Below, one piece after another: positions 9,132 through 29,510 of a stretch of 40,504 nucleotides of DNA; the first letter of the stretch is position 1; each line of letters opens with the position of its first letter. Source of the DNA: Fidelibacterota bacterium (lineage in GTDB: Bacteria > Fidelibacterota > UBA2242); assembly GCA_049975265.1 (NCBI GenBank), contig JBNGDF010000010.1, positions 44,980 to 85,483 on the forward strand, given 5' to 3'. Both the position numbers and the translations under genes were made by a program. The notes under the pieces were generated by a model. That model searched no databases. It was given only the letters and a program-made list of their open reading frames with translations, and was not told the origin of the DNA.

Positions 9132-9668
9132 CTATTCTTTCGGTGTGTCCCAGATTTCACGACCAAAAAAATCCCAGGGCAGACGTTTCTCATCACACTC
9201 CGTTGCGTCAGGACTGAACTTGCGGTCAACGAAATAGATGATGCGCGCCAACTGCGCCGAGGCATTTTTACAACCATGGGCAATGCCGGGTGGTATCAGC
9301 ACCAGCCGCGAAATACAATCACCCATGATCAATTTCATCATCACTCCCGAAGTAGGCGAACCGTGACGTTGATCCACTAAAACCAGCACCAGTTTATCTG
9401 TCGGTGGTACGTACCAAACATCGGTCTGAAACTCATGAATGTGGAAAGCTTTGATCCCACCGGGTTCCAGCTCACTGAAGTTGATCTGCGCCAGAGTGAA
9501 TGTCGCCACTCCATCCAGTTTTCCGTTCGTCAGACGGGCGAGTTCAGTCAAAGCGCCGGTCTCATCATTGAAGCGCCGTAAGGGCAGGATTTTAACTCCG
9601 TCTATGATCGGTTTAGATGAATAGTCCTGGACCAAAAGGGAACTCTGGGCGTCATCGTTTAATTTCAT
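9132..9668 (-). CDS. dTDP-4-dehydrorhamnose 3,5-epimerase-like (RmlC cupin)
   Basis: IDGV, DETG..TE, AFHIH..QTD, DQR..SPT, IPPGIAHG motifs; ATG at 9668 preceded by AAGGA. Confidence 0.85.
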   Translation of the reverse strand: MKLNDDAQSSLLVQDYSSKPIIDGVKILPLRRFNDETGALTELARLTNGKLDGVATFTLAQINFSELEPGGIKAFHIHEFQTDVWYVPPTDKLVLVLVDQRHGSPTSGVMMKLIMGDCISRLVLIPPGIAHGCKNASAQLARIIYFVDRKFSPDATECDEKRLPWDFFGREIWDTPKE

Positions 9669-9751
9669 GGATCGTTCCTTATTTTTTCCGATAGATAACT
9701 TAATTCCATTCAAATAAAAACACAACAGATGGGTAATGTTTCCACCACAAC

Positions 9752-9780
9752 TTGACATTCCTCGCTAATGCTGCTAAATT
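9752..9780 (+). promoter_or_regulatory. Sigma70-type promoter of the nuo-like operon
   Basis: TTGACA (9752-9757), 17 bp spacer, extended TG, TAAATT (9775-9780). Confidence 0.7.
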
Positions 9781-9805
9781 TTTCCTTTAAAAATTGAAAG
9801 TCATT

Positions 9806-10066
9806 ATGAAGAATCCTCATACGGAAGCAACCAGGTCAGGGAGTATTCCCGCCCGACACGATGGATATCATCTGTTCTGGATAATATTCCAAGCCTACTG
9901 CCTGATTACCATTCTGATTCTGTTCCTGAGCGGCTATACCGTTGTTGCCGGCTCTTCTCCTCTGAAAATCCCGTTTATCATCTATGCGCTTGTCAATTCG
10001 GTGATCTACTACCGCCTTTTTTTTAGAAATCCAATCCTACGAAAACAAATTTCAAAAACCAACTAG
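9806..10066 (+). CDS. Small membrane protein, possibly a truncated, diverged NuoA-like subunit
   Basis: About 86 aa with two hydrophobic helices; first gene of the nuo-like operon; only weak resemblance to NuoA TM2-3 and no FDVE motif. Confidence 0.45.
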   Translation: MKNPHTEATRSGSIPARHDGYHLFWIIFQAYCLITILILFLSGYTVVAGSSPLKIPFIIYALVNSVIYYRLFFRNPILRKQISKTN

Positions 10067-10082
10067 CCCAAATGGTTCCGAT

Positions 10083-11186
10083 TTGATCCACCGATACCCC
10101 CTGAAAATCAACGTTCGCCTTGCGGATCAGAAGACCTTCCTCCCAATCACTCTCCGGTGTTCCGGCAACCGCATTGTGGATATCGATTGTCATTTTGCCG
10201 ATCGGCTCCGCAATATACAATTGGTCACCGATTGCGATCCCGAACAGGCTCTGTTTCCTTACCCCCATCGCTCCATAAAACTGGAATTGCTGGATCTGTA
10301 TCTGGCACAGTGTCGCCTGATAGAATCCCATTTTCAATGGACCGTGCCCGCCTACGCTGGTTTGATTCGGTCGCTGCTTATGGAGTTGCACCGTTTACTG
10401 AATCACTATCACTTTTTCCTGGCGCTCGCCATGGCTACCGAATTCCCAAAACTTATCAGAAACGCTCTTTCCGGTCGTACAGCCGTTTATCGTCTGCTCC
10501 GGGAGATTCAGTCGCATGCGGTGACCAATGATTTTTTTATTCTCGGCGGGATTGCCCGCGATCTCCCCACCGGTTTTCTGGAAAAGGTTCTGCAGACGGT
10601 GACAGCAATGCAAATTCGCTTGAAGCCCATTGAAAACCAACTACGAAAAAGGACAATATTTTCCAACCAGTTGGAAAAAATCGGTATCATCTCCCGTGAA
10701 GAAACCACAATGTGGCAATTATCCGGACCGAACCGGCAGGCATGCGATCCACTTTTATCCGCGGGGCTACCAGCCTCCAACGCTGCAAATAGTCAAAAAA
10801 AAATCCGACTAATTCTCCATTCAAAGGGCGTTCCCGGTGATGCCTGGCACCGTACCTGGGTTCGTCTTCAGGAGATACGGCAATCGCTGTACACGACTCA
10901 CAACCTGGTACAGGAAATCTTCAAAACCGAAATCGCTTTATCGACGCCCTTTCATATCGGTCGACAGCACATCGATATTACCACCGATTTCAGCAGCGCT
11001 GAGGGAACAGTAAAATGCCATATTACCCGAAACCCCGGCGAAAAGTCCTTTGCGGGAAGCTATCAATATCCCGCTGTGAATATTATCAGCCATCTTGGTC
11101 TGTTACTACGGGGACAGAGAATCTCCGACGCGGGAATAATTATAAGCAGCCTGAATCTTAATCCAATCAAACACCACATCGAATAA
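10083..11186 (+). CDS. Diverged NuoD-like (complex I 49 kDa family) protein
   Basis: ELHRLLNH, GGIARDLP, IGIISREE..LSGPN, GDAWHR..VRLQEIRQS and ISDAGIIISSLN match the NuoD scaffold. No HPSTHG or DRLDY motifs, and no CxxC pairs, so not a [NiFe] large subunit. Confidence 0.8.
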   Translation: MIHRYPLKINVRLADQKTFLPITLRCSGNRIVDIDCHFADRLRNIQLVTDCDPEQALFPYPHRSIKLELLDLYLAQCRLIESHFQWTVPAYAGLIRSLLMELHRLLNHYHFFLALAMATEFPKLIRNALSGRTAVYRLLREIQSHAVTNDFFILGGIARDLPTGFLEKVLQTVTAMQIRLKPIENQLRKRTIFSNQLEKIGIISREETTMWQLSGPNRQACDPLLSAGLPASNAANSQKKIRLILHSKGVPGDAWHRTWVRLQEIRQSLYTTHNLVQEIFKTEIALSTPFHIGRQHIDITTDFSSAEGTVKCHITRNPGEKSFAGSYQYPAVNIISHLGLLLRGQRISDAGIIISSLNLNPIKHHIE

Positions 11187-12220
11187 TGCGACTATTTTTC
11201 ACGGACAATTACAATTTCATATGCGGTGGTGGAACGATAGCCATCCTGGACAGCACTTTAAAAACTTTTTCCGGACATATCGCCAGCCTGGTATTCATCC
11301 TTTTACCCGTGCTGTGGATCATAACTGCACTACTCTCCCGTACAAACATACATACGGAGAGCCCGGACGGCAAATCATTTTTATCGCACTATAAGCAATT
11401 CTGGTTGGTAACCCGTAATCATATCCGAAATCTTTTCAGAATCGGGCAAAGCCATTTTCCACTCTTCAATTTACTCTTAGGCAGCGTCGCTTTACTAAAC
11501 TTTTGCTTACTGATGTTGTTTCCGTTGAATGTACGTCCACCCGGGCTTCGATCGGATTACGGAGCCCCCATTATCATTGCAACGTTGCTGCTGAATGTCA
11601 TCGTTTATGCCACCCGCCTTTTTTATATACCGGAAGATCGTGCCGATACCACCCTGCGCCTCAACCGCCAGTTGAGCACCGTAATTATTATGATTACCAC
11701 GAGTCTGCTGTCCGTCTGTCTGGTAAACCGGACTTTCGACCTGGAGATGATCCTGTCGAAACAACAAAACCTGTTTGTCGGGATTCTGCCCGCCTGGAAT
11801 GTTCTGCGCCATCCCATGCTATTTGGCAACGCTCTGTTTATCTTCGGTGGTTTTATTGTTATGCTTCAGATACTGAATCAGACGGTACTACATGCTCCTA
11901 ATAAAACCGATTCGCTTCACCCCTATAGCCGTTCATCGATCGGAGATACTTACATCCAGTTATGGTCCCATAGTCTCATGCTCCTGATTACGTTCAGCTA
12001 CATCTACTTTTTCTGGGGTGGTCAGTTTTTGCTACCGGGGATTGGCGGAATCTGGATCGGTCTGCTGATTAAAATCAGCCTTCTACTGTTTTTATCAAAT
12101 TGGTTCTACCGTGCGATTCCGCAACTGATCGAAGAACAGCTCATCCGGATCAGCTATACGATTATTATCCCCGTTCAGGTGATTGCACTGGTAATAACGG
12201 TTCTGTTAAATAATCCATAA
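11186..12220 (+). CDS. Diverged NuoH-like membrane subunit
   Basis: 344 aa, about 8 TM; TFDLEMILSKQ..PAWN..P, YFFWGG, LIKI..WFYRAIPQL..EQL echo NuoH; coupled to nuoD-like by a TAATG overlap. Confidence 0.7.
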   Translation: MRLFFTDNYNFICGGGTIAILDSTLKTFSGHIASLVFILLPVLWIITALLSRTNIHTESPDGKSFLSHYKQFWLVTRNHIRNLFRIGQSHFPLFNLLLGSVALLNFCLLMLFPLNVRPPGLRSDYGAPIIIATLLLNVIVYATRLFYIPEDRADTTLRLNRQLSTVIIMITTSLLSVCLVNRTFDLEMILSKQQNLFVGILPAWNVLRHPMLFGNALFIFGGFIVMLQILNQTVLHAPNKTDSLHPYSRSSIGDTYIQLWSHSLMLLITFSYIYFFWGGQFLLPGIGGIWIGLLIKISLLLFLSNWFYRAIPQLIEEQLIRISYTIIIPVQVIALVITVLLNNP

Positions 12221-12234
12221 GGAGTGATTCTGCT

Positions 12235-12693
12235 GTGACTGCCTTCACCATTATCTTCCCATTACTAATGCTCGCACTGGGCACGGCATGGCTGTTCACA
12301 AAACGGAATCCAATGAAAAATCTCCTTTTTCTTCTCATGATTCTCCTCTTGGTCCCCCAGTTTATCAAAACCTCCGGTGTACTCTGCGCCGCTGTTTTCT
12401 TGTTGGCAGGACTGGTAATGTCACTGCTTCTTATGCAGCTGCTTCCCGGCAAAGCCGATTTCCTGAAATCCCTCAAAAAGATTTCGTGGCCTGTAAAAAT
12501 CTGCTCGATGGTTTTCATCGTTATGACTGGATTGACGGTGATGCTGGTTCGGTCGGAATATCGTCACTTAAAGACGAGCCCGGCGCTACCCGACACAACT
12601 GGTAATTTTCCGGTAACTCTCTGGATTTTTCTCCTGATGGCGACACTTTTTTCGATTCAAATTTTCCTGCTGCTGAAGGACAAGGGAGAATGA
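12235..12693 (+). CDS. Diverged NuoJ-like membrane subunit
   Basis: 152 aa, about 5 TM; FTKRNPMKNLLFL resembles NuoJ (T.RNP..SAL.L); AAGGAG SD; operon position. Confidence 0.65.
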   Translation: MTAFTIIFPLLMLALGTAWLFTKRNPMKNLLFLLMILLLVPQFIKTSGVLCAAVFLLAGLVMSLLLMQLLPGKADFLKSLKKISWPVKICSMVFIVMTGLTVMLVRSEYRHLKTSPALPDTTGNFPVTLWIFLLMATLFSIQIFLLLKDKGE

Positions 12694-12697
12694 TGTA

Positions 12698-12982
12698 ATG
12701 CTTTATACGACAACTTCTATCTTACTGATTGTATGCGGGATACTGGGATTCACCATGCACCGTTTAGCCCTTCTGAAAATTCAGTCCGGTTTTCTGGTGG
12801 TCTCCGGAATACTGATCGCTTTTCCCGGAGCCAATGAACCGGCTGCGAACTCCGCAGATTGGAGCTGTTTTGCCTCAATAATCATAGTTGTTTATTTACT
12901 GATATTTTTGGCGGCGGTAACCAAAATCTATTTTCATAAATCCGCTGACACTCAAAAGAAAGGGAGCGCCAAAGAGTCATGA
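12698..12982 (+). CDS. Diverged NuoK-like membrane subunit
   Basis: 94 aa, 3 TM, G.LG motif in TM1; lies between the J-like and L-like genes. Confidence 0.65.
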   Translation: MLYTTTSILLIVCGILGFTMHRLALLKIQSGFLVVSGILIAFPGANEPAANSADWSCFASIIIVVYLLIFLAAVTKIYFHKSADTQKKGSAKES

Positions 12983-14874
12983 CCGTCACAACACTTATCG
13001 TATTTTTGCTAATGCTGCTTCCCGTTGCGGTGAATAATTTGATGCCAAATCGTCAGAGAGGTTCTATACTACTTGCTGCCGTCCCGGTATATCTGCTTGC
13101 GCTTCTTTTCTTCAGCTGGTTATTCTATCAGCTTCTTGCGACTGCACCTGATTTTGTCAAAGAAATTTCGCTTGGTCGAATGATCCTTGGGTATATGGAT
13201 CTGCCGTTTCAGTTAATCATTAATCGACAGACACTGATCAGCGGTTCAGTCCTCCTGCTGATGTTCATTATTCTGCTGCAAACTGAAATCACGCCTTCAC
13301 ATTCTGCCATCGATCATGTTCATCGCTTCAATTCGCTTTATTTGCTGTTCATTGCGGCGCTGATTTTTCTGACTGCCGACAGCTTCCTGTTGTTGACCTG
13401 TGGAATGATTTTTGTCAGTGTTGTGATAATTTATCGCGATCTTGTATTCGGGAATGAGAACAGGTCAATATCGCTTTTCACCGAATTTGTCATCCTCGAT
13501 TTGCTCTTTTTCAGTGCTGTATTAATTCTCAGCTGGAGAACATCGTGGGGTTCCCTCACGGAAATCAGCTCATCAGGAGAAGTCATTCCCATGTTGCCCG
13601 GATTGTGTTTGGTTGCACCGATTATCCTGAAAATGGTCAGGATTCCCTATTGCACATCTGGTATCAAATCACAAACCTCCACCGGAAGTGGTGTTTTTAT
13701 GGTTGGGTCAGAGGGTACGTTGATGGTTTTCCTGCTCAGATTCTTCCATCTTCTGCACGACAGCTGTTTTACATGGCTGCTGGTAGGTGGACTGTTTCTG
13801 GCTCTTTCCGCCGCCTTATCGTCCATTATGAGTCACCGCTCCGAATCGGCGCTCCAGGCGCTGCAACCGGCACAAATGGGGCTTGTATTAATTGGTTTGG
13901 GACTTCGAAGACCGGTCATCTCTCTGCTTTTTACAATCATTTATATTTTTTCAAATACTCTGTTAATCCTCAGTCACTCGGTCGCGGATAGGGGAGCAGG
14001 CAACCGCGAACAATCGAAATCGTTGTACCGCTTGTTGAGTGTCTTGATTTTTCTCTTCGCTGCCACCGCCGTTGCCGGTCTCCTGCCATGTTCCGGTTTC
14101 ACGATCAGATATTCTATGATGCTTTATTTCGCCGAAATGACACCTCTTGATTCAGCACACCGGGCACTGCTCGTTTTACTGTATTTGGCAATAATGTTGG
14201 TTGCCTTTGCTGCCTTTCGGTATTTTTTTATTACCCTGCAGAGCTGGCGCAATGCCGGTCATTCCCGATCAAACACTCTTTCCGATCAAAAATTATTCGC
14301 TGCCTTACTGATTTTACTGAATCTGTATCCGGTTTTGACTTTTCCCACCTTCAATCCCCTTAAGACGGACAGCTGGATATACCGGTTTGTAACGAAGCCG
14401 GAGACGCTTCCGCCAACTCTTCCGGCGGTTTCTAATCCCATATTCATTGCGATGATTGTTGTTCTGGCAGTAAGTTTTTTTCTGACCCTCATCATTTACC
14501 AGCTCAAACTGATGAATCTGTCCTTTCTATCGATATTTTATACTCCTTTTAAAAAATGCAACCAGGCAACCATCCGATTCTTTCATCATATAGATGAATT
14601 CTCGATAAAATTGATGCGCTTTCTCTCAAAAAGAGTCGGCATCCTTGAAAGCACGACGTTACCGGACACTGCTCAGAAAATTGCCTGCCGAACCCGTTCC
14701 GGATTTTCGAAAATCGTCGATTTTTCTCAAAAATCGCCGAATTGTCTGCGGTTTCATCAATTCAGTACGCGCCTCACCGGCAGTATCGTTCAATTTTGGC
14801 AAAACCATGATATCATTGCGTCGGTGATACTGCTGCTTATCATGGCACTGTTCATAATCATAAGCATTCTTTAA
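12979..14874 (+). CDS. Diverged NuoL-like antiporter-family subunit
   Basis: 631 aa, many TM; RF..LY.LF, LTADSF, QMGL..IGLG, AGLLP.SGF, C-terminal amphipathic region plus final TM; ATGA overlap with the K-like gene. Confidence 0.75.
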   Translation: MTVTTLIVFLLMLLPVAVNNLMPNRQRGSILLAAVPVYLLALLFFSWLFYQLLATAPDFVKEISLGRMILGYMDLPFQLIINRQTLISGSVLLLMFIILLQTEITPSHSAIDHVHRFNSLYLLFIAALIFLTADSFLLLTCGMIFVSVVIIYRDLVFGNENRSISLFTEFVILDLLFFSAVLILSWRTSWGSLTEISSSGEVIPMLPGLCLVAPIILKMVRIPYCTSGIKSQTSTGSGVFMVGSEGTLMVFLLRFFHLLHDSCFTWLLVGGLFLALSAALSSIMSHRSESALQALQPAQMGLVLIGLGLRRPVISLLFTIIYIFSNTLLILSHSVADRGAGNREQSKSLYRLLSVLIFLFAATAVAGLLPCSGFTIRYSMMLYFAEMTPLDSAHRALLVLLYLAIMLVAFAAFRYFFITLQSWRNAGHSRSNTLSDQKLFAALLILLNLYPVLTFPTFNPLKTDSWIYRFVTKPETLPPTLPAVSNPIFIAMIVVLAVSFFLTLIIYQLKLMNLSFLSIFYTPFKKCNQATIRFFHHIDEFSIKLMRFLSKRVGILESTTLPDTAQKIACRTRSGFSKIVDFSQKSPNCLRFHQFSTRLTGSIVQFWQNHDIIASVILLLIMALFIIISIL

Positions 14875-14897
14875 CCAATGGATGAAAGGCAAGATAT

Positions 14898-16385
14898 ATG
14901 GGAAATCACCTGCTTTTGATCACACTCTTTCTCCCGCTCATCGGGGCACTGATTATTCTGTTTATAAAGGAAAAGAAGTCGACGGTAATCCGGTCTGTGG
15001 CGGCAATTGTCTGCGGTTTACAACTCTGGATCGTGGTTCAGTTGCTCACCACCTTCGATAAAACTGCAACCTGGCTGCAATTTGGGGAACATATCCGCTG
15101 GATTGACTTTCTTGATATTAATTTTATCATCGGTATTGACGGAATCAACCTGGTTTTCCTGAATCTCTCGGGCATCATTTTTCTTGCAACGGTATTCATC
15201 AGCCGGCAGATTTCCAACCGGCAGAAATCTTTTTATACCTTGTTGATGATATTAAATATCGGTATTACCGGTGTGTTGATTGCCTTCGATCTATTTTTGT
15301 TTTTGATGTTTTACGGACTGACCCTCTTTTCCATGTTTCTTCTGGTTACCCTGTTCCCTGCACAGGAAAGCGATATCCGTTCCGGGCATTTCGGAATGAA
15401 TGTACTTATCTCCTTTTGCCTGATGATAATCGGAATCCTGATCCTGAACCACCAAAATCCAAATGCCGGATTCAATCTGGTCACATTCATGCGGAGTGCC
15501 ACCGTGCCGGGAAATGTCAGCACCGTCGGATTTTTCATCGTTTTCATCGGTTTTCTGTTCATTACACCGGTCTTCCCCTTTCACTCCTGGCTTGCAGCTA
15601 CTGCCAATAATACCATCATTCCCGTCGCGATTCTGGTTCTGTCAATTTTTTCGCAAATCGGAATTTTTGGGATGCTGCATATAGTATTGCCGCTCTTCGC
15701 TCACCATGCGACACACTATGCAATTCTCTTCAGCATTCTCGGATTGATCGGTATCCTGTACTACGCCGTCTGCGTCTTCAGCTTTTCAAATTTCAAGAAA
15801 ATTACAACTTATGCAGCGGGCTATCTGAACGGCTTCGTCTTTTTGGGATTGGCAGCGCTGCTGGCAACACATCATCTGCCGGATGCAGCTTTCAGCGGTC
15901 TCAATGGAGCGGTTATTCAGACTGTTGCTTCGGCGCTTCTGATAATGACCATGTTACTCATACCAAAGGCTTATCAGCACATCATTACCGCAGCGACAGC
16001 CACTGTCAATCATCAATGGCCGTTAAAGCTCATAATAATCTTGATTCTGTGCGCAGCTATCGGTTTACCGGGATTTCCAATCTTTGTGGGACAATTTCTA
16101 TGCTTAACCGGTTCGTTTCAGGTTCTTTCGACCCGGATCATTTCGATTGTTGCGCTGGCTGGATTGATCATCGTCGGCATCCAATTTTTCAGAATTATCC
16201 GCAGCATCGTCCGGCGGAGCGACGAGTACGATTTCAGTGTCAACACAGCCGAAATAGACAACGAGCGCGTCATTCTGCCCCTGGTTCTCAGCGTACTTTT
16301 TATTTGCGGTATCTTCCCCAACCTGATTCTGAAAATTCTGGATCAAAGCATTCATGTCCTGATCCAATCACTAACAGGCATGTAG
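14898..16385 (+). CDS. NuoM-like antiporter-family subunit
   Basis: 495 aa; FLPLIGA, QF.E...WI, GIDGI, DLFLF, PVFPFHSWL, GLPG..FVG, GIFPN. Confidence 0.85.
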   Translation: MGNHLLLITLFLPLIGALIILFIKEKKSTVIRSVAAIVCGLQLWIVVQLLTTFDKTATWLQFGEHIRWIDFLDINFIIGIDGINLVFLNLSGIIFLATVFISRQISNRQKSFYTLLMILNIGITGVLIAFDLFLFLMFYGLTLFSMFLLVTLFPAQESDIRSGHFGMNVLISFCLMIIGILILNHQNPNAGFNLVTFMRSATVPGNVSTVGFFIVFIGFLFITPVFPFHSWLAATANNTIIPVAILVLSIFSQIGIFGMLHIVLPLFAHHATHYAILFSILGLIGILYYAVCVFSFSNFKKITTYAAGYLNGFVFLGLAALLATHHLPDAAFSGLNGAVIQTVASALLIMTMLLIPKAYQHIITAATATVNHQWPLKLIIILILCAAIGLPGFPIFVGQFLCLTGSFQVLSTRIISIVALAGLIIVGIQFFRIIRSIVRRSDEYDFSVNTAEIDNERVILPLVLSVLFICGIFPNLILKILDQSIHVLIQSLTGM

Positions 16386-16394
16386 CCGAATCAC

Positions 16395-17777
16395 ATGAAT
16401 ATCAGTGCCAGTCTGTTCTATTTTATCCCGGAATTGATCCTTCTGCTCAATATCCTTATCCTGTTTTTCTTCGCAGACATCCGTCAGAAGCGGCTCCTGA
16501 TTTTATTAAAAGCATTTCTGCTTGCCGGTTTTTCAGCCGTAATTATCCTCAATATCGGCTGTCTGGCAGACCTGCCACGGGGTCTTTTTTCCAATCATTT
16601 CGTCCGGGACCCTTTCGCCAGTCTCTTTGGTATCGTTCTGGTTATTCTTTTTTTCGTTTTGAATGCCAACCTCCTCTGTCAGTTTCAAAAGGGTGCTCAT
16701 TTTCGGGAGCTGATGAACCGAACACTCAGCCTGATGGCAGTGCTACTCCTGGTGAAAGCCAATTCACTAACCGCTCTTGTCCTCTGTTTCGGATTAATCT
16801 TCATTTCCCATACCCTTTCCAACGAACCATCGAAAAGTGAAAATTCCGGCAATTTTGCTACCATGCAAATTCATCTGCTTTCCTTTGGAATGCTGCTATT
16901 CGGATTCTGGATAATCCACACCCTGTCCGGTACATTCTATTTTTCCAATATGGATGGCGCTGCAACCTCCCTGTACAAGAATCCGGTAATTGCATGCTAT
17001 CTATTCCTTCTTCTGACCACCGGATTCGGGCTTTACGGTATTCTGATCCCATTTTACGGTTTACATAACCATCGAAATTCCTTCAACGGGATTTGGGATT
17101 CCGGATATTTTCTGCCGCTTTTAGGACTGTTTGCGACACTGATCCGCCTGATGAACATTCTTTTCCCGGAGAATACCTCCCTGGCTACTCCATCCGGAAA
17201 AATCACAGTGTTCGCCGCGGGTTTATCAACCTGTCTGATGCTCGGCGCCAACCTTTATTATTTACAACGAAAAAACAGATCCAATCTTTTCAACGCCGCT
17301 CTGGTGATTCATTATGCCATGACACTGATCGGACTGACACGCCTGAATCCGCACTCTGCGGCAGCTGTCATCTATTTCATGCTCAGTGCAACTCCGATGT
17401 TTGCCGGAATTACATTATTACGACGAGATAATCATCATTCCGGTGCCGACAAATATTTACTTACCATCTTCTATCTCGGACTGCTTGGTCTGCCCGGAAC
17501 TTCAGGATTTGCAGGGCGGTTTCTGCTGATGAAAACACTGCTTGACAGCGGGATATCGATTGGGATCATCATTATCAGTTTTCTGTTTTCAGTACCGCTG
17601 GTTTTCTATTTTTGCCGCGAAATTATCGGTTTGTACACAGCCCCCGAAAAGCCTGCCGAGTTTGCCGGGCGAGACCGGCTGATGCCGATTTTCCTGGCGC
17701 TGGTTACGTTGGCAACCGGCATATTCTGGGAACCTTTTTTTGAAATAATCACTAAAACTATCGTATTTTTTCCATAA
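16395..17777 (+). CDS. Diverged NuoN-like antiporter-family subunit
   Basis: 460 aa; PELIL, F..DPFA, LLFG..I..LSGT, GLPGTSGFAG, FYF.R.I..LY, GIFW.P. Confidence 0.8.
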   Translation: MNISASLFYFIPELILLLNILILFFFADIRQKRLLILLKAFLLAGFSAVIILNIGCLADLPRGLFSNHFVRDPFASLFGIVLVILFFVLNANLLCQFQKGAHFRELMNRTLSLMAVLLLVKANSLTALVLCFGLIFISHTLSNEPSKSENSGNFATMQIHLLSFGMLLFGFWIIHTLSGTFYFSNMDGAATSLYKNPVIACYLFLLLTTGFGLYGILIPFYGLHNHRNSFNGIWDSGYFLPLLGLFATLIRLMNILFPENTSLATPSGKITVFAAGLSTCLMLGANLYYLQRKNRSNLFNAALVIHYAMTLIGLTRLNPHSAAAVIYFMLSATPMFAGITLLRRDNHHSGADKYLLTIFYLGLLGLPGTSGFAGRFLLMKTLLDSGISIGIIIISFLFSVPLVFYFCREIIGLYTAPEKPAEFAGRDRLMPIFLALVTLATGIFWEPFFEIITKTIVFFP

Positions 17778-17789
17778 GGAGCATCCAAC

Positions 17790-18422
17790 ATGACAAACCT
17801 CGAAAAACAGCCACTCTTTTTTGACGTGGATACCCAGATAGATTTTATCGAAACCGCCGGCGCGCTGTACGTTCCCGGCGCCGAAACACTTAAGCCCCGT
17901 TTCAGGCAGCTGGTCCGTTATGCCCGTATAAATCACATTCCCATCTGGGGCAGCGTCGATGCTCACCATCCTGAAGACGCCGAACTGAACCGGAATGATG
18001 GTCCCTTTCCGGACCACTGTATGCAGGGCAGCCCCGGTCAGCCAAAAATCGCCGAAACCATGCCGACCAATCCCACCTGGATCGAAAACAGACCCTACTC
18101 CCCTGCGGAATTGACCGAAATACTCCGACATCCCGATGAAATCTACTTCCTGAAACAGACATTCAATATGTTCGACAATCCGAATCTGGAATCCCTTGTC
18201 AGCGATTTTAATCCCATCGTCGTATTTGGAGTCGCCACCGATTATTGTGTTCTGGCGGCGGTAATGGGGTTTCTGGACCTGGGCAAAACAGTTTATCTGG
18301 TTGCCGATGCCGTAAAAGCCGTAACACCTGAGGACGGTCAAAACGCACTGAAAAAAATGCAGGCAAAGGGCTGCCTCATCGTCACCACTGACGATATCGT
18401 CAACGGTTATCTGGAAAAATAA
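17790..18422 (+). CDS. pncA: Nicotinamidase/isochorismatase-family cysteine hydrolase
   Basis: DVDTQIDF..GAL.VP, D.H, FPDHC, K..F, FGVATDYCV catalytic motifs; AAGGAG SD. Confidence 0.85.
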   Translation: MTNLEKQPLFFDVDTQIDFIETAGALYVPGAETLKPRFRQLVRYARINHIPIWGSVDAHHPEDAELNRNDGPFPDHCMQGSPGQPKIAETMPTNPTWIENRPYSPAELTEILRHPDEIYFLKQTFNMFDNPNLESLVSDFNPIVVFGVATDYCVLAAVMGFLDLGKTVYLVADAVKAVTPEDGQNALKKMQAKGCLIVTTDDIVNGYLEK

Positions 18423-23451: not shown

Positions 23452-24795
23452 TCAGACACAACCCTGATCGATCATGGAATCGGCGACTTTGATGAATCCA
23501 CCGATATTAGCGCCCTTGACATAATTGACATAGTCGCCGTCCTGACCATATTTAACACAGGTCGCATGAATATTCTTCATGATGCTCTGCAGTTTTTGAT
23601 CGACTTCCTCACGGCTCCAGTTAAACCGCATGCTGTTCTGGCTCATTTCCAGACCGGATACAGCGACACCGCCGGCATTGGCGGCTTTTCCTGGTGCATA
23701 GAGCATACGGTGTTTCACAAACAGAGTAATCGCGGCGGGGGTACAGGGCATATTGGCGCCTTCGCAAACGCAGATACAGCCGTTGTCGACCAGGTTTTCG
23801 GCATCCGCTTCATTCAGTTCGTTCTGAGTCGCACAGGGCAACGCAATATCGACTTTTACCTCCCAGGGACGCCGTCCGGCGACAAATTTGGCGCTCTTGA
23901 ATTTATCCGCAAAGGGTGCGACAACGTCATTGTTGGTAGCACGCAGTTCCAGCATGTAGCGGATTTTCTCATCGTTAAGTCCCTCTTCATCATAGATATA
24001 CCCGTCGGGACCAGAGAGGGTAACAACCTTTGCACCGAGTTCCGTGGCTTTCTGGGCGGCGCCCCAGGCGACATTCCCGAATCCCGAAATGGCAACCCGT
24101 TTGCCCTTAAAGGATTCACTCCGGGTTTTCAGCATTTCCTGAGCAAAATAGACATTGCCGAAGCCGGTTGCTTCCGGTCGAATGAGACTACCGCCCCAGC
24201 TCAACCCCTTACCGGTCAGAACCCCGGTATATTCGTTTTTCAGCCGCTTATACTGACCAAACAGGAAACCGATTTCACGGGCACCCACGCCAATATCACC
24301 GGCGGGAATATCAACATTGGCACCGATATGCCGGTACAGCTCGGTCATAAAGGATTGACAGAAGCTCATGATCTCATTCTCGGATTTGCCCTTCGGATTG
24401 AAATCCGAACCCCCCTTACCGCCCCCCATAGGCAGGGTTGTCAGACTATTTTTAAAAATCTGTTCAAACCCAAGAAACTTCAAAATGCTGAGATTTACCG
24501 ACGGGTGAAAACGTAAACCACCTTTATAGGGACCGATGGCGGAATTGAACTCAATGCGATAGCCACGATTCACCTGGATATTGCCGCGATCGTCCCGCCA
24601 GGGCACCCGAAAAATGATGGTCCGCTCCGGCTCGATAATCCGCTCTAATATCTTATGGTGTTGGTATACCGGATTCTCCTGGACAAAATCCCACAAAAAC
24701 TCAACCACTTCATGCACAGCCTGGTGAAACTCGGTCTCACCGGGATTCCTGGCAATCACCATCTGCATAAATTCTTCGACGGATGCATAATTCAT
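23452..24795 (-). CDS. gdhA: Glutamate dehydrogenase (NADP-specific GdhA type)
   Basis: GPYKGGLRFH, GGGKGGSDF, PAGDIGVG, RPEATG, SGFGNVA, PCATQNE, EGANMP, GKAANAGGV. Confidence 0.97.
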   Translation of the reverse strand: MNYASVEEFMQMVIARNPGETEFHQAVHEVVEFLWDFVQENPVYQHHKILERIIEPERTIIFRVPWRDDRGNIQVNRGYRIEFNSAIGPYKGGLRFHPSVNLSILKFLGFEQIFKNSLTTLPMGGGKGGSDFNPKGKSENEIMSFCQSFMTELYRHIGANVDIPAGDIGVGAREIGFLFGQYKRLKNEYTGVLTGKGLSWGGSLIRPEATGFGNVYFAQEMLKTRSESFKGKRVAISGFGNVAWGAAQKATELGAKVVTLSGPDGYIYDEEGLNDEKIRYMLELRATNNDVVAPFADKFKSAKFVAGRRPWEVKVDIALPCATQNELNEADAENLVDNGCICVCEGANMPCTPAAITLFVKHRMLYAPGKAANAGGVAVSGLEMSQNSMRFNWSREEVDQKLQSIMKNIHATCVKYGQDGDYVNYVKGANIGGFIKVADSMIDQGCV

Positions 24796-25311: not shown

Positions 25312-25767
25312 ATGCCGGAACCCACTTCCTTTTTAACCCATTTGGAGAAAGACAGAAGCAATCTAATCAAAGCCCTGCAATTGACCCAGGAAGCCGAGGG
25401 CTATATTTCCGATGAAGCGGTACGGATTATTTCCGACTATTTTGCGCTTCCGCCAGTGGATGTCGAAGGCGTTCTGAGTTTTTATGCTCAATTCAAGCGT
25501 ACCAAGCCGGGGAAATATATCATTTCCGTCTGTGACGGTACCGCCTGTCATATCAAAGGCTCCAGTCTGGTCGCCAACTGGATCACCGATTTTCTGGGCA
25601 TCAAAAGTGGCGAAACCGATAAGGACGGTCTTTTCTCCCTGGAAACCGTCGCCTGTCTCGGCTGTTGCAGTCTGGCGCCGGTCATCAGCATTAACGGTAA
25701 GGTTTTCGGGAATCTGGACCGAAAAAAACTGTTAAAAGTCCTTAAAAAATATAAACAGACGGGATAA
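25312..25767 (+). CDS. NuoE/HydC-like [2Fe-2S] subunit (StnA-like)
   Basis: C-DGTA-C..CLGCC motif; AAGGAG SD. Confidence 0.92.
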   Translation: MPEPTSFLTHLEKDRSNLIKALQLTQEAEGYISDEAVRIISDYFALPPVDVEGVLSFYAQFKRTKPGKYIISVCDGTACHIKGSSLVANWITDFLGIKSGETDKDGLFSLETVACLGCCSLAPVISINGKVFGNLDRKKLLKVLKKYKQTG

Positions 25768-25768
25768 C

Positions 25769-27481
25769 ATGATAAAACGGATCAAAATCGGTACCGGGAG
25801 TTGCGGACTAGCCGCCGGCGCAGGCGAGGTATATGACTTCTTCAGAGAAAATATTCGGGATATAGACGTTATCGGCGTGGGCTGTATCGGGCACTGTTAT
25901 GCCGAACCGCTGGTGGAGGTGGAAACGGATCAGGGATCCGTTTTTTATGAAAAGGTCGAACCAACCCAGGTTTTTATTGATAAAATACGCAATCTCGATG
26001 AGCAATCGCGGTTGAAATTTCGTCCGGAACGCCGGGAACGGGAGCGGCTCAAAGTCACCCGGCTCGCCGGACGGATCGATCCCACCTCTATTGACGAATA
26101 CCTCAAAAACGGTGGTTACAGCGCCCTCACGAAAGCCATGACCATACCGCCCGAGCAAGTCGTCGAGGAAGTAAAACGATCGGGATTACGCGGACGCGGT
26201 GGAGCCGGCTTTCCTACCGGTCTGAAATGGAGCTTTCTCCAAAAAAGCAGGAATTCGGACAAGGTATTGATCTGCAACGCCGATGAAGGTGATCCGGGTG
26301 CCTTTATGGATCGTTCAATGATGGAATCGGTGCCCCATCAGGTCCTGGAAGGGATGCTGATCGCAGCCTATGCGACCGGAGCCACCCTCATTTTTATCTA
26401 TTGCCGGGCGGAGTATCCCTTAGCCATCAAACATCTTAAAACCGCCATTGATCAGATTATAAAACATGGTTTAAATCAGATAGGCGACCGAAAACTGACG
26501 ATTCAAATTAAAGAGGGTGCCGGTGCGTTTGTCTGCGGTGAAGAGACCGCCATGATCCACTCTCTGGAAGGCAGCCGGGGAACACCGCGATTCCGTCCGC
26601 CTTACCCCACCGATTCCGGCTTCAAAGGTCTGCCGACCATGATCAATAACGTCGAAACCTTCGCAAATATCCCGATCATTATCAATGAAGGCGGCGCCGA
26701 ATTCGCTAAAATCGGTACAGAAAAAAGCAAGGGAACCAAACTTTTCGCTCTCGCCGGCGATCTGAAATACCCAGGACTGGTGGAGGTTCCCATGGGAATC
26801 ACACTGGGCGAGATTGTCTACGACATCGGCGGCGCGGAAAAGGGGAGCGTCAAAGCCGTCCAGATCGGCGGTCCCAGCGGCGGCTGCATCCCGGCGGAAC
26901 ATTTCGATGTCAGAATCGACTACGACTCACTAAAATCGCTGGGCGCCATTATGGGCTCCGGCGGTCTGATCTTCATCGGTCAGAATCGCTGTATGGTGGA
27001 AACCGCCCGCTATTTCCTCGATTTTACGACCCGGGAAAGTTGCGGAAAATGCACCTTCTGCCGCATCGGGACTAAGCGTATGCTGGAGACCTTGGAGCGA
27101 ATTACCCACGGCAAAGGGGTGCCGGAAGATATTGAATTTCTTGAGGATCTTGGAAAAAAAATAATCAAGGGCTCGCTTTGTGGTCTGGGTCAATCGGCAC
27201 CCAACCCGGTATTGACAACCTTACGCTACTACCGCCATGAATATGAACGGCATGTTATCGACAAACGGTGTGATGCGCTGGTCTGCAACGATCTGGTCCG
27301 GGTCTTTATCAACAAATCCAACTGTATCGAATGCGGACTCTGTATCAAAAACTGCCCCGTCAATGCCATTTCCGACAATTATGTCATTGATGATACCATC
27401 TGTACCCGATGCAACAGCTGTATTGAAGTCTGTCCCAAAAACACCATTTCACGAATAGCGGGAGGAAATGCCGGTGTCTGA
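25769..27481 (+). CDS. NuoF/HydB-like FMN/NADH subunit with C-terminal 2[4Fe-4S] (StnB-like)
   Basis: GLRGRGGAGFPTG, NADEGDPGAFMDR, GAGAFVCGEET, GGPSGG, ESCGKCTFCR, two CxxCxxCxxxCP motifs. Confidence 0.93.
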   Translation: MIKRIKIGTGSCGLAAGAGEVYDFFRENIRDIDVIGVGCIGHCYAEPLVEVETDQGSVFYEKVEPTQVFIDKIRNLDEQSRLKFRPERRERERLKVTRLAGRIDPTSIDEYLKNGGYSALTKAMTIPPEQVVEEVKRSGLRGRGGAGFPTGLKWSFLQKSRNSDKVLICNADEGDPGAFMDRSMMESVPHQVLEGMLIAAYATGATLIFIYCRAEYPLAIKHLKTAIDQIIKHGLNQIGDRKLTIQIKEGAGAFVCGEETAMIHSLEGSRGTPRFRPPYPTDSGFKGLPTMINNVETFANIPIIINEGGAEFAKIGTEKSKGTKLFALAGDLKYPGLVEVPMGITLGEIVYDIGGAEKGSVKAVQIGGPSGGCIPAEHFDVRIDYDSLKSLGAIMGSGGLIFIGQNRCMVETARYFLDFTTRESCGKCTFCRIGTKRMLETLERITHGKGVPEDIEFLEDLGKKIIKGSLCGLGQSAPNPVLTTLRYYRHEYERHVIDKRCDALVCNDLVRVFINKSNCIECGLCIKNCPVNAISDNYVIDDTICTRCNSCIEVCPKNTISRIAGGNAGV

Positions 27482-29510
27482 TATCAGGATTACTATTGAT
27501 CATAAAATCTGTAACGCCAAAAGCGGTCAAACCATTCTGGAAGTTGCCCGGGAAAACAATATTTTCATCCCGACACTCTGCTACAACGAAAACATCACCC
27601 ACAACACCGCCTGCTTTGTCTGCGTGGTTAAAGATACCGGGACAGGGCGGTTCTTACCCAGCTGTGCCGCTCTGGCGGTGGACGGCATGGTCGTCGAATC
27701 GAACTCTGATGAGGTTCGCGATATGCGCAGGACGGCACTGAATTTATTGCTTTCGGAACACATTGGCGATTGCGAAGCCCCCTGTACGATGGCTTGCCCG
27801 GCACATGCCAATGTGGAGGAATACGTTCGCGCCGGTCGCAATAGAGACCTGCTGGGAGCACTGAAAATCATCAAGCAGCGTATACCGCTGCCTCTCTCCA
27901 TTGGTCGTGTCTGTCCCCGGTTTTGTGAAAAGGACTGCCGCCGCAATATTATCGATAAACCGGTGGCGATTAATGATGTCAAACGTCTCGCCGCCGATTT
28001 ATATTACGAAAGCTACATGGAAGATGTACCAGAACTGAACGGCAAGAAGGTCGCCATCATCGGCGCCGGACCGGGTGGTTTGGGTGCCGCCTATTTTCTG
28101 CGACTGAATGGCATCGCCGCCGACATTTACGATCAAATGCCCGAAGCCGGCGGTATGCTGCGCTATGGTATTCCCGAATACCGCCTACCGAAAAGCATTC
28201 TCGATAAAGAGATCGCCCACTTTGGAAAAATGGGCGGCATTGCTTTCTTCTTAAACCGGAAACTCGGTGCCGATCTTTCTCTCAAAGAGCTGAATCGTCA
28301 ATACGACGCCATCGTCATTGCCATCGGGTCCTGGCAACCGGCGCCCATGCGGGCGGAGGGCGAAGAACTGGCTGAGGGCGGCATTCGCTGGCTGGAAAAA
28401 ATTGCCCGCAATGGTTGGTGTGGTGAAAATCCCGGTAAAACCATTGTCATCGGCGGCGGCAATACCGCCATGGACTGCGCGCGGACAGCGGTACGCCTGG
28501 GAAAAGGTCAAAACGAGGTTTATTGCTACTACCGCCGCACTGAAAAGGAGATGCCCGCTGAGCAGATCGAGATCGACGAAGCCCGGAAAGAGGGCGTCAT
28601 TTTTGAGTTTTTAACCGCACCGGTTCGGCTTGCAGAGAAAAACGGGAAGAAAGTCCTGACCTGCATGCGCATGAAACTGGGTGAACCGGACGCTTCCGGT
28701 CGGCGCAGACCAATTCCCATCGAAGGTTCTGAATTCGATGTGGAAGCCGATACAGTCATTGCCGCTATCGGTCAAAAAACCGTTGCACCTGAATTTTTAT
28801 CAATAAACCGCTGGGGCGATATTGATGTGAACAAAGATAACAACCAGATGGCGGATAAAATCTTCAGCGCTGGTGACTGTGTCACCGGTCCGGCGACCGT
28901 GGTGGAGGCGGTGGCAGCCGCACGCCGCGCCGCTCTCGGCATTGTGGCATATCTGAAAGGTGAAAAATACAAAGAGCCATACACCATCAACGTCAGCCGT
29001 GGTCACTGGCAGTCATTGCGGAAAGAAGATCTCGTTTTCCTCAGAAACGTACGCCAGTCGGACCGCCAGCCGCTGCACCTCATCTCCCTGGAAGAAAGGA
29101 AAACAACCTTTAATGAGGTCTCCCGAACCTTCACTGTTGATGAAGTCGCCGCCGAAGGTGAACGCTGTCTGGAGTGCTCCTGCACCGCCAAACACGATTG
29201 CAAACTGAAAGAGTATTCCGAAATCTACGGTGCTCATCCCGAAGGCGTCGCTGGTGAAAAATTGCGCTATAATTTCGACACCCGGCATCCGTCAATCATT
29301 CTTGACCGTAATAAATGCATCAAATGCGGCATCTGCATCAAGGTCTGTAAGGAGGTTGTCAATCTCTCGCTATTGGGATTTAAACAGCGGGGATTTCATA
29401 CTTATCTCGACACAGCGTACGATGAACCTCTACCCACCACCTGCGCCGGATGCGGACAATGTATCGACGCCTGTCCCGTCGGTGCTCTCGATTGGAAAGA
29501 AAAGAGCTGA
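27468..29510 (+). CDS. NuoG-N/GltD fusion Fe-S flavoprotein (short StnC-like)
   Basis: IPTLC..CFVC..C [2Fe-2S]; DCEAPC..ACP, GRVCPRFCE.DC; FAD GAGPGG; NADPH GGGNTAMD..YRR; C-terminal CIKCGIC and CAGCGQC; no H-cluster or Mo domain. Confidence 0.88.
   Translation: MPVSDIRITIDHKICNAKSGQTILEVARENNIFIPTLCYNENITHNTACFVCVVKDTGTGRFLPSCAALAVDGMVVESNSDEVRDMRRTALNLLLSEHIGDCEAPCTMACPAHANVEEYVRAGRNRDLLGALKIIKQRIPLPLSIGRVCPRFCEKDCRRNIIDKPVAINDVKRLAADLYYESYMEDVPELNGKKVAIIGAGPGGLGAAYFLRLNGIAADIYDQMPEAGGMLRYGIPEYRLPKSILDKEIAHFGKMGGIAFFLNRKLGADLSLKELNRQYDAIVIAIGSWQPAPMRAEGEELAEGGIRWLEKIARNGWCGENPGKTIVIGGGNTAMDCARTAVRLGKGQNEVYCYYRRTEKEMPAEQIEIDEARKEGVIFEFLTAPVRLAEKNGKKVLTCMRMKLGEPDASGRRRPIPIEGSEFDVEADTVIAAIGQKTVAPEFLSINRWGDIDVNKDNNQMADKIFSAGDCVTGPATVVEAVAAARRAALGIVAYLKGEKYKEPYTINVSRGHWQSLRKEDLVFLRNVRQSDRQPLHLISLEERKTTFNEVSRTFTVDEVAAEGERCLECSCTAKHDCKLKEYSEIYGAHPEGVAGEKLRYNFDTRHPSIILDRNKCIKCGICIKVCKEVVNLSLLGFKQRGFHTYLDTAYDEPLPTTCAGCGQCIDACPVGALDWKEKS

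Follow-up and report, generated by a model that had tools for sequence, protein, structure and literature searches.

The closest described relative of the system reported here is the 11-subunit complex I (NuoABCDHIJKLMN), the non-canonical NADH dehydrogenase (NDH) of the Marinimicrobia; the available part of PMC6143742 describes both canonical and non-canonical NDH in that group, with the non-canonical form absent from basal clades. The Mrp Na+/H+ antiporters are, like the assembly described below, redox-free and built of homologous antiporter-like subunits (MrpA and MrpD), and according to the accessible text of PMC13073174 they retain the Glu of transmembrane helix 5 (TM5) together with the Lys of TM7. 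NuoD- and NuoH-like subunits are also contained in the Mbh and Mbs (Mbx) oxidoreductases. The DabAB/DAB2 carbon uptake systems and cyanobacterial NDH-1MS provide a precedent for NuoL-like subunits in a new job, having recruited a carbonic-anhydrase-like partner, and a further parallel is offered by pseudoenzymes, catalytically dead paralogues that are kept as scaffolds or regulators. Here we describe an operon of nuoA, nuoD, nuoH, nuoJ, nuoK, nuoL, nuoM and nuoN homologues at positions 9794-17777 of a 40,504-nucleotide stretch of DNA (the window; contig JBNGDF010000010.1, positions 44,980 to 85,483, of assembly GCA_049975265.1) from a Fidelibacterota bacterium. It encodes a putative complex I-derived pseudo-enzyme assembly that is neither a complex I nor an Mrp antiporter nor a group 4 [NiFe] hydrogenase, and that is apparently undescribed.

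The operon has the homology, gene order and fold of the complex I membrane subunits. The canonical order in the phylum (genome G148) is A-B-C-D-H-I-J-K-L-M-N and is maintained here, but nuoB, nuoC and nuoI have been cleanly deleted with no leftover spacing between the remaining genes; the NuoH-like gene starts at the NuoD-like stop, and the NuoJ-like gene follows the NuoH-like gene after 14 bp. Compared with its ancestor the operon has also lost the quinone site of NuoD and the acidic axis, has a truncated NuoA, and is reducible to D and H. The Fe-S subunits NuoB and NuoI and the connecting NuoC are missing from the operon in all full loci, and no orphan NuoB, NuoC or NuoI copy assignable to it was found in the host genome (G000). 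In two relatives the interval between H and J, where nuoI would sit, is longer: about 570 bp in G008 (L038:10394-10969), containing a short repeated sequence, and about 420 bp in G023 (L039:5239-5659).

Unlike Mrp, the operon lacks MrpB/E/F/G, has D and H, and does not keep the TM5-TM7 pair; its best family matches are to Nuo and its ancestry is not Mrp. It differs from Mbh/Mbs and the group 4 hydrogenases in that its NuoD has no Ni-binding CxxC and no gene for a small Fe-S subunit is present, and from Mbh/Mbs additionally in having three antiporter-like subunits in Nuo order. There is no carbonic-anhydrase-like partner gene in the operon and most of the axis is lost, in contrast to DabAB and NDH-1MS. 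Loss of catalytic residues with retention of fold and selection is shared with pseudoenzymes, but in this case extends to an entire membrane machine of eight subunits, and the genomes concerned yielded no active paralogue of complex I. A full-text literature search returned no description of such a complex, although supplements and most subscription papers lay outside its coverage and an earlier mention is possible; the term 'degenerate' does not occur in the available part of PMC6143742, and the accessible portions of PMC8630151 and PMC7382037 contain no mention of Nuo.

Loss of acids and retention of bases

Residue calls were made by alignment to the E. coli K-12 Nuo subunits and to canonical copies from the same phylum, and are given in E. 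coli numbering with the window residue following. All of the canonical control rows (three to five per subunit) carry every residue checked, indicating that the alignment register is sound; misalignment as the source of the apparent losses was rejected because the controls keep these residues in the same columns. The window, whose copy ranks among the two most eroded, has lost every central-axis Glu, although the loss of residues is not total. In the NuoM-like protein (495 aa, 14898-16385, + strand; TIGR01972, 8.9e-69), the most conserved subunit of the degenerate clade, all seven axis residues checked are replaced (E144 by G140, K234 by I222, H248 by A236, K265 by Q253, H322 by L310, H348 by S345 and E407 by Q399). 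The NuoN-like protein (460 aa, 16395-17777, +; TIGR01770, 1.5e-7) has G133 for E133, Y214 for K217, L242 for K247 and R375 for K395, and keeps H305 as H306. In the NuoL-like protein (631 aa, 12979-14874, +) the Glu and the His/Lys relay are gone (E144 to I144, H254 to F240, H334 to F318, H338 to Y322, K342 to N326, K399 to R377), and K229 (K218), D178 (D174) and the C-terminal helices are kept. TM12 of both the L-like and the N-like protein carries an Arg, and the pairing of a TM5 Glu with a TM7 Lys is broken throughout, there being no TM5 Glu in L, M or N.

The smaller subunits and the NuoD-NuoH module are similarly affected. The NuoK-like protein (94 aa, 12698-12982, +), called by alignment, has F32 at E36 and no Glu at E72; its orthologue in G023 still matches NuoK models, two of them above cut-off. 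The NuoJ-like protein (152 aa, 12235-12693, +), called by position and alignment without a family match, has lost Y59. The NuoA-like gene (9794-10066, +, with a likely start at ATG 9806) encodes two membrane helices only and has no Pfam match, being identified from its position and its alignment to relatives and canonical NuoA; E51, D79 and E81 are lost. The NuoH-like protein (344 aa, 11186-12220, +) matches PF00146 below the cut-off (3.4e-5) and lacks the acidic TM5-6 loop and the charged cavity residues, with none of the 11 examined (E36, R37, R46, D63, E71, E157, R209, D213, E216, E218, E241) being kept; K274 is present as K296, and the E241 column has a Ser. The E-channel acids of NuoA, H and K are thus not retained. 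In the NuoD-like protein (367 aa, 10083-11186, +; PF00346, 1e-21), which aligns to the canonical NuoD of G148 with a profile match probability of 100 over 351 columns, the His pair of the quinone loop (QHPSTHG) is replaced by L and K, and neither GYLHR, the Tyr nor the EIDR of the C-terminus survives; in canonical NuoD the His pair and the Tyr belong to the quinone site.

A first-pass annotation, made from the sequence alone, had proposed much of this, and the alignment to E. coli subunits that it recommended bears out the Glu and Lys replacements that it named: E144, K234, K265 and E407 in M, E133, K217 and K395 in N, the two Glu of K, and the charged motif and acidic loop of H. It placed the system at 11186-17777, which leaves out what precedes nuoH at 9751-11186, namely the promoter and the genes for the NuoA-like and NuoD-like proteins, and its statement that only a possible K229 remains in L, correct as to K229 and the losses listed, misses D178.

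The folds persist. An AlphaFold model of the M-like protein (predicted local distance difference test, pLDDT, 87.7) has a TM-score (template modelling score) of 0.87 to E. coli NuoM (3rko) and 0.79-0.84 to MrpA/D, and that of the L-like protein (pLDDT 75.6) has the long C-terminal helices and ND5/NuoL as best matches, so that at the level of predicted models the L and M folds are shown to be retained despite the residue loss. The Pro/Gly motifs reported earlier as conserved are indeed so, nine positions (P224, P227, W231, G389, P391, G392, F396, G471 and P474) being invariant across 18 M-like proteins.

The host has no other complex I membrane arm, and contains intact Mbx-type and Mbh-type operons (labels that reflect our reading of gene content) and a fused double Mrp-like antiporter. 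The last is a 1038-aa protein (G000:C50:52-3168; L004, L006) that contains two full Proton_antipo_M domains and lies apart from any other Mrp gene, and similar 1052-aa frames occur in G013 and G031. The Mbx/Mbs-type operon (G000:C4:47918-58716) lies behind a Rex-like regulator gene and has a NuoI-like subunit extended to 633 aa. Within the window, genes for NuoE-like and NuoF-like proteins and a 680-aa NuoG/GltD-like flavoprotein (25312-29510, +), divergent from a glutamate dehydrogenase gene (23452-24795, -), resemble what we take to be a soluble electron-bifurcating transhydrogenase of the Stn/Nso kind.

Could the complex still be a working redox-driven pump, one that obtains its NuoB/C/I-like subunits from the Mbx- or Mbh-type complexes or draws electrons from the NuoEF-like complex? 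G000 does have homologues of this kind (for NuoB and NuoC they lie within the operons of Mbx and Mbh type, apart from one more locus on C24), and E. coli NuoN E133A and K217A mutants still pump, as reported in the available part of PMC13073174. Against this, all TM5 Glu, M-K234, N-K247, K-E36/E72, A-D79/E81, the NuoD quinone site and GYLHR have been lost together, whereas in the same source NuoN K247A and K395A nearly abolish activity, K247A alone reducing it to about a tenth, and the accessible text of PMC9802314 describes central-axis charges as essential in Paracoccus complex I (the roles of axis residues are also covered in the available part of PMC9271201). Because electron wire, quinone site and ion pairs have gone together, redox-driven pumping appears very unlikely on the sequence evidence, and we would give this explanation hardly any weight, regarding it as close to refuted.

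Across relatives the trend is that acids are lost and bases retained. TM12 has a Lys or Arg in 17/17 L-like and 19/19 N-like proteins (Arg in 10 and 13 of them), L-K229 in TM7 is Lys or Arg in 16 of 17, and M-K265 and H-K274 are retained in 18/20 M-like and 26/27 H-like proteins respectively. D178 persists in 12 of the 17 L-like proteins. By comparison, the TM5 Glu is found in 0/17 L, 0/20 M and 4/19 N proteins, M-E144 is Gly in 19 of 20, K-E36 survives in only three of 20 relatives, and H-E241 has become Lys or Arg in 24 of 27. None of the D-like motifs is conserved among 27 proteins (quinone-loop His pair, GYLHR, Tyr, EIDR), the first His being present in none and the second in three. The 'systematic loss' of a charged axis proposed earlier therefore holds for the acids and His relays but not as a complete removal, since the basic residues are largely kept. 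In the same way the idea of a multi-subunit pseudo-pump with fold kept and chemistry removed stands, the redox side having gone as well and selection being purifying, with the exception of total charge removal.

This pattern fits a rival explanation in which L, M and N now act as a secondary transporter or channel that is uncoupled and likely carries an anion by means of the buried bases (L-K229, L-TM12, M-K265, N-TM12) and the Lys/Arg gained at NuoH E241; that M is the most constrained subunit, and that in genus g3 the NuoN axis residues and K-E36 are all still present, also speak for it. We nonetheless consider it unlikely. M-K265 is lost in both the window and G002, the window H has its Ser at E241, no new conserved polar pore residues beyond the kept or gained bases appeared in the relatives' alignments, G000 already possesses the intact Mbx-type, Mbh-type and fused Mrp-like ion translocators, and genus g11 has dropped A, J, K, L, M and N altogether and retains D and H.

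Ancestry, distribution and graded loss

In trees of D+H+L+M+N and of D+H, the degenerate copies form one clade with support of 1.0, sister to the phylum's native 11-subunit complex I, showing that the operon descends from that complex. These are FastTree trees with long branches and weak internal nodes, in which rows without some subunits were kept with gaps and the genus order conflicts with family labels; only the monophyly and the nesting of g11 are used. Root-to-tip lengths are 1.0 in g3 and 2.2-3.75 in the other degenerate copies versus 0.45-0.6 in canonical ones, and degenerate branches are two to six times longer overall. Residue and gene loss is graded across the lineage: g3 is already without B, C, I, L-E144, M-E144 and M-K234, and keeps M-H348 and M-E407 in addition to the NuoN axis and K-E36.

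A D-like gene (E <1e-60) is present in 26 of the 30 genomes of this family of uncultured bacteria and in G025. With the M-like genes of G006 and G018, and G026, counted in, 30 of the order's 42 genomes have at least a portion of the operon, and 16 genomes carry all eight genes on a single contig. The operon went undetected in G007, in G013, or in 10 of the 11 genomes of two other families, these being incomplete assemblies. Since orthologues are intact in many relatives, we rejected decay or misassembly in a single genome. Strong H-like matches are confined to this order in a 201-genome sample of the phylum, and a search of 1.84 billion representatives gave 24 clusters at 1e-40 or better, followed by a drop to 1e-31.

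Among 126 more distant NuoH-like matches, recovered with a profile that itself favours Lys or Arg at the E241 column, 13 have Lys or Arg there and 98 have Glu. The 13 (P0025, P0028, P0035, P0042, P0066, P0069, P0070, P0092, P0099, P0110, P0113, P0131 and P0141) also have eroded charged motifs and may possibly represent independent degenerate complexes. A metagenome scan with P0025 found a single locus, 27% identical; a plasmid search returned ordinary NuoD only, and an Atlas search gave generic NuoH-like clusters with recognition below threshold. Seven other proteins (P0029, P0046, P0060, P0062, P0076, P0129 and P0137) are canonical-looking NuoH with a long N-terminal extension in which a PDZ-like domain is recognised, in most cases with a score close to or under the Pfam cut-off.

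Selection and the NuoD-NuoH pair

The eight genes are relaxed in constraint but far from neutral. Pooled Nei-Gojobori ratios of nonsynonymous to synonymous substitution (dN/dS) for three genome pairs are 0.225, 0.224 and 0.226, as against 0.046 (2 genes), 0.045 (8) and 0.103 (13) for Mbh-type controls in the same pairs; single genes range from 0.07 to 0.47, with no value taken from saturated pairs. Upstream is a consensus sigma-70-type promoter (9751-9780, +; TTGACA at 9752-9757, a 17 bp spacer and TAAATT at 9775-9780), a pattern with a single match in the window and 0 expected from 100 shuffles. It is exact in 26 of the 28 genomes for which the operon start was fetched, the exceptions being G026, with a one-base variant read by eye, and G025, with none. 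With no frameshifts or stops, dN/dS not near 1 and a promoter that has not decayed, a pseudogene cluster was rejected.

A slower form of decay deserves weighing, in which the operon is a functionless relic and selection merely purges misfolded or unassembled membrane proteins until the whole unit is deleted. Its dN/dS of two to five times that of intact controls, the long branches, the stepwise erosion (A without TM1; H without TM1 in G002) and the clean removal of the operon in G013, together with its absence from most genomes of the two other families, are all in keeping with this. In G002 (L033:4407-5252) the first membrane helix of H was lost by an in-frame deletion and the overlap with the nuoD stop persists; in G013 promoter and operon were deleted together, leaving the flanking rmlC-like and nicotinamidase-like genes adjacent. 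However, frames are open in all full operons examined, even where some orthologues are at only 13-20% identity, the promoter is invariant where one mutation would silence it, and D and H are under ordinary constraint in g11; the argument from the promoter is weakened in that some genomes may use it for downstream genes as well. We regard a relic as quite improbable.

The g11 case is the most informative. In 3/3 genomes of this genus the operon promoter has just two genes left to drive, the D-like and the H-like, and profiles for degenerate M or L gave only Mbh/Mbx-level matches elsewhere in these genomes (completeness 89-96%). The pair is nested within the degenerate clade, and its dN/dS of 0.06-0.18 resembles that of neighbouring genes (0.04-0.17). 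In this genus at least, the selected role, whatever it is, can thus be filled with the antiporter-like subunits gone; the first-pass annotation overlooked that the part kept longest is D plus H and not those subunits.

D and H line the quinone cavity in complex I, and as the minimal kept pair they might retain it as a redox-free pocket for a prenylated lipid or quinone-like molecule, serving as carrier or sensor, with the Lys/Arg at E241 holding an anionic head group. The charged cavity residues are now neutral with one base gained, the E241 change recurs in the 13 distant NuoH-like matches, and a MenA-like prenyltransferase gene is present in 31/42 genomes of the order. But those matches came from a profile favouring the change, conservation in H is lowest in TM1 and in the amphipathic helix where the cavity opens (TM1 being deleted in G002), the quinone-facing sheet is the most diverged part of D, and the MenA-like gene is present in G013 and G028, which lack the operon, but went undetected in the operon holders G010 and G019. 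A lipid pocket seems to us improbable. Across the 27 D-like proteins identity to canonical NuoD averages 12% in the first 80 residues and 27-31% in the helical body.

Of the terminal oxidases, neither COX1 nor cytochrome bd was found in any of the 42 genomes of the order (0/42). No MqnA/D or MenB was found above cut-off in 37 members; MqnA/D is also missing in 5/5 holders of canonical complex I, all five of which have the MenA-like gene, and G037 has neither. Quinone loss is not established as the cause of degeneration. In G000 the MenA-like gene (C9:67953-69326) encodes about 150 extra N-terminal residues and lies near another UbiA-family gene and a geranylgeranyl-reductase-like gene, MenB and MqnA/D not having been found in the genome.

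A proposed scaffold derived from complex I

Our preferred explanation, to which we would give about an even chance, is that the operon product forms a membrane scaffold that neither carries out redox chemistry nor pumps; NuoH would anchor NuoD, and NuoD is predicted to bind a cytoplasmic partner through its helical body; we infer that the complex is expressed and assembled and does not transport. The lineage would have stopped respiring, in line with the lack of COX1 and cytochrome bd, whereupon the electron wire (B, C, I) was deleted and titratable residues drifted away, while expression of the D-H pair was maintained by a second role, structural or regulatory. The likely reason for A, J, K, N, M and L to persist is that H needs the surrounding membrane arm to fold and remain stable, a dependency that would have become entrenched and that g11 escaped; we draw this from E. 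coli, in which deletion of NuoN leads to loss of most membrane subunits (available part of PMC13073174). The Lys and Arg kept at helix breaks would be structural under the scaffold explanation, since the change usually seen there is Lys to Arg, and Arg relays protons poorly.

Several observations weigh against a scaffold. No partner or ligand of the D-H pair was identified, and the helical body evolves more slowly than the rest of NuoD in canonical copies too, so that its retention is weak evidence of a binding surface. Unpaired buried bases are kept at very low overall identity, which fits transport equally. NuoM is the most constrained protein in the eight-gene operons (dN/dS 0.07-0.20), column identity is 48% for M versus 39% for D and 33% for H, and the distal L is present in every full operon and never lost alone; D and H may have specialised separately in g11. 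The operon is absent from 12/42 genomes, some of them near-complete, and is thus dispensable.

A related but more doubtful proposal, which we hold tentatively, is that complex I here became a redox-free machine with a NuoD-NuoH core, its axis switched from titratable acids to fixed positive charges, that binds or transports an anion or lipid head group or senses membrane state, the switch of E241 to Lys/Arg having arisen independently in NuoH paralogues of other phyla.

An RmlC-like cupin gene (9132-9758, -) is divergent from the operon and a nicotinamidase-like gene (17790-18422, +) follows nuoN by 12 bp, both syntenic in many relatives. A functional link to the former was rejected because 35 of the 42 genomes have it, operon-free ones among them, and an obligatory link to the latter because it is absent downstream in g4, g6, g7, g11 and G025 and retained in G013 after the deletion.

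Complex I is usually treated as a machine with invariant coupling residues, and here is a lineage that keeps the architecture and drops the chemistry. The graded series from g3, with its intact NuoN axis, through the window to the two-gene D-H unit tells residues that serve folding and assembly from residues that serve coupling, a distinction beyond the reach of single mutants, and the g11 pair is a small, testable object for non-pumping roles of complex I subunits. For the organisms themselves, annotation of these genes as 'NADH-quinone oxidoreductase' overstates respiratory capacity.

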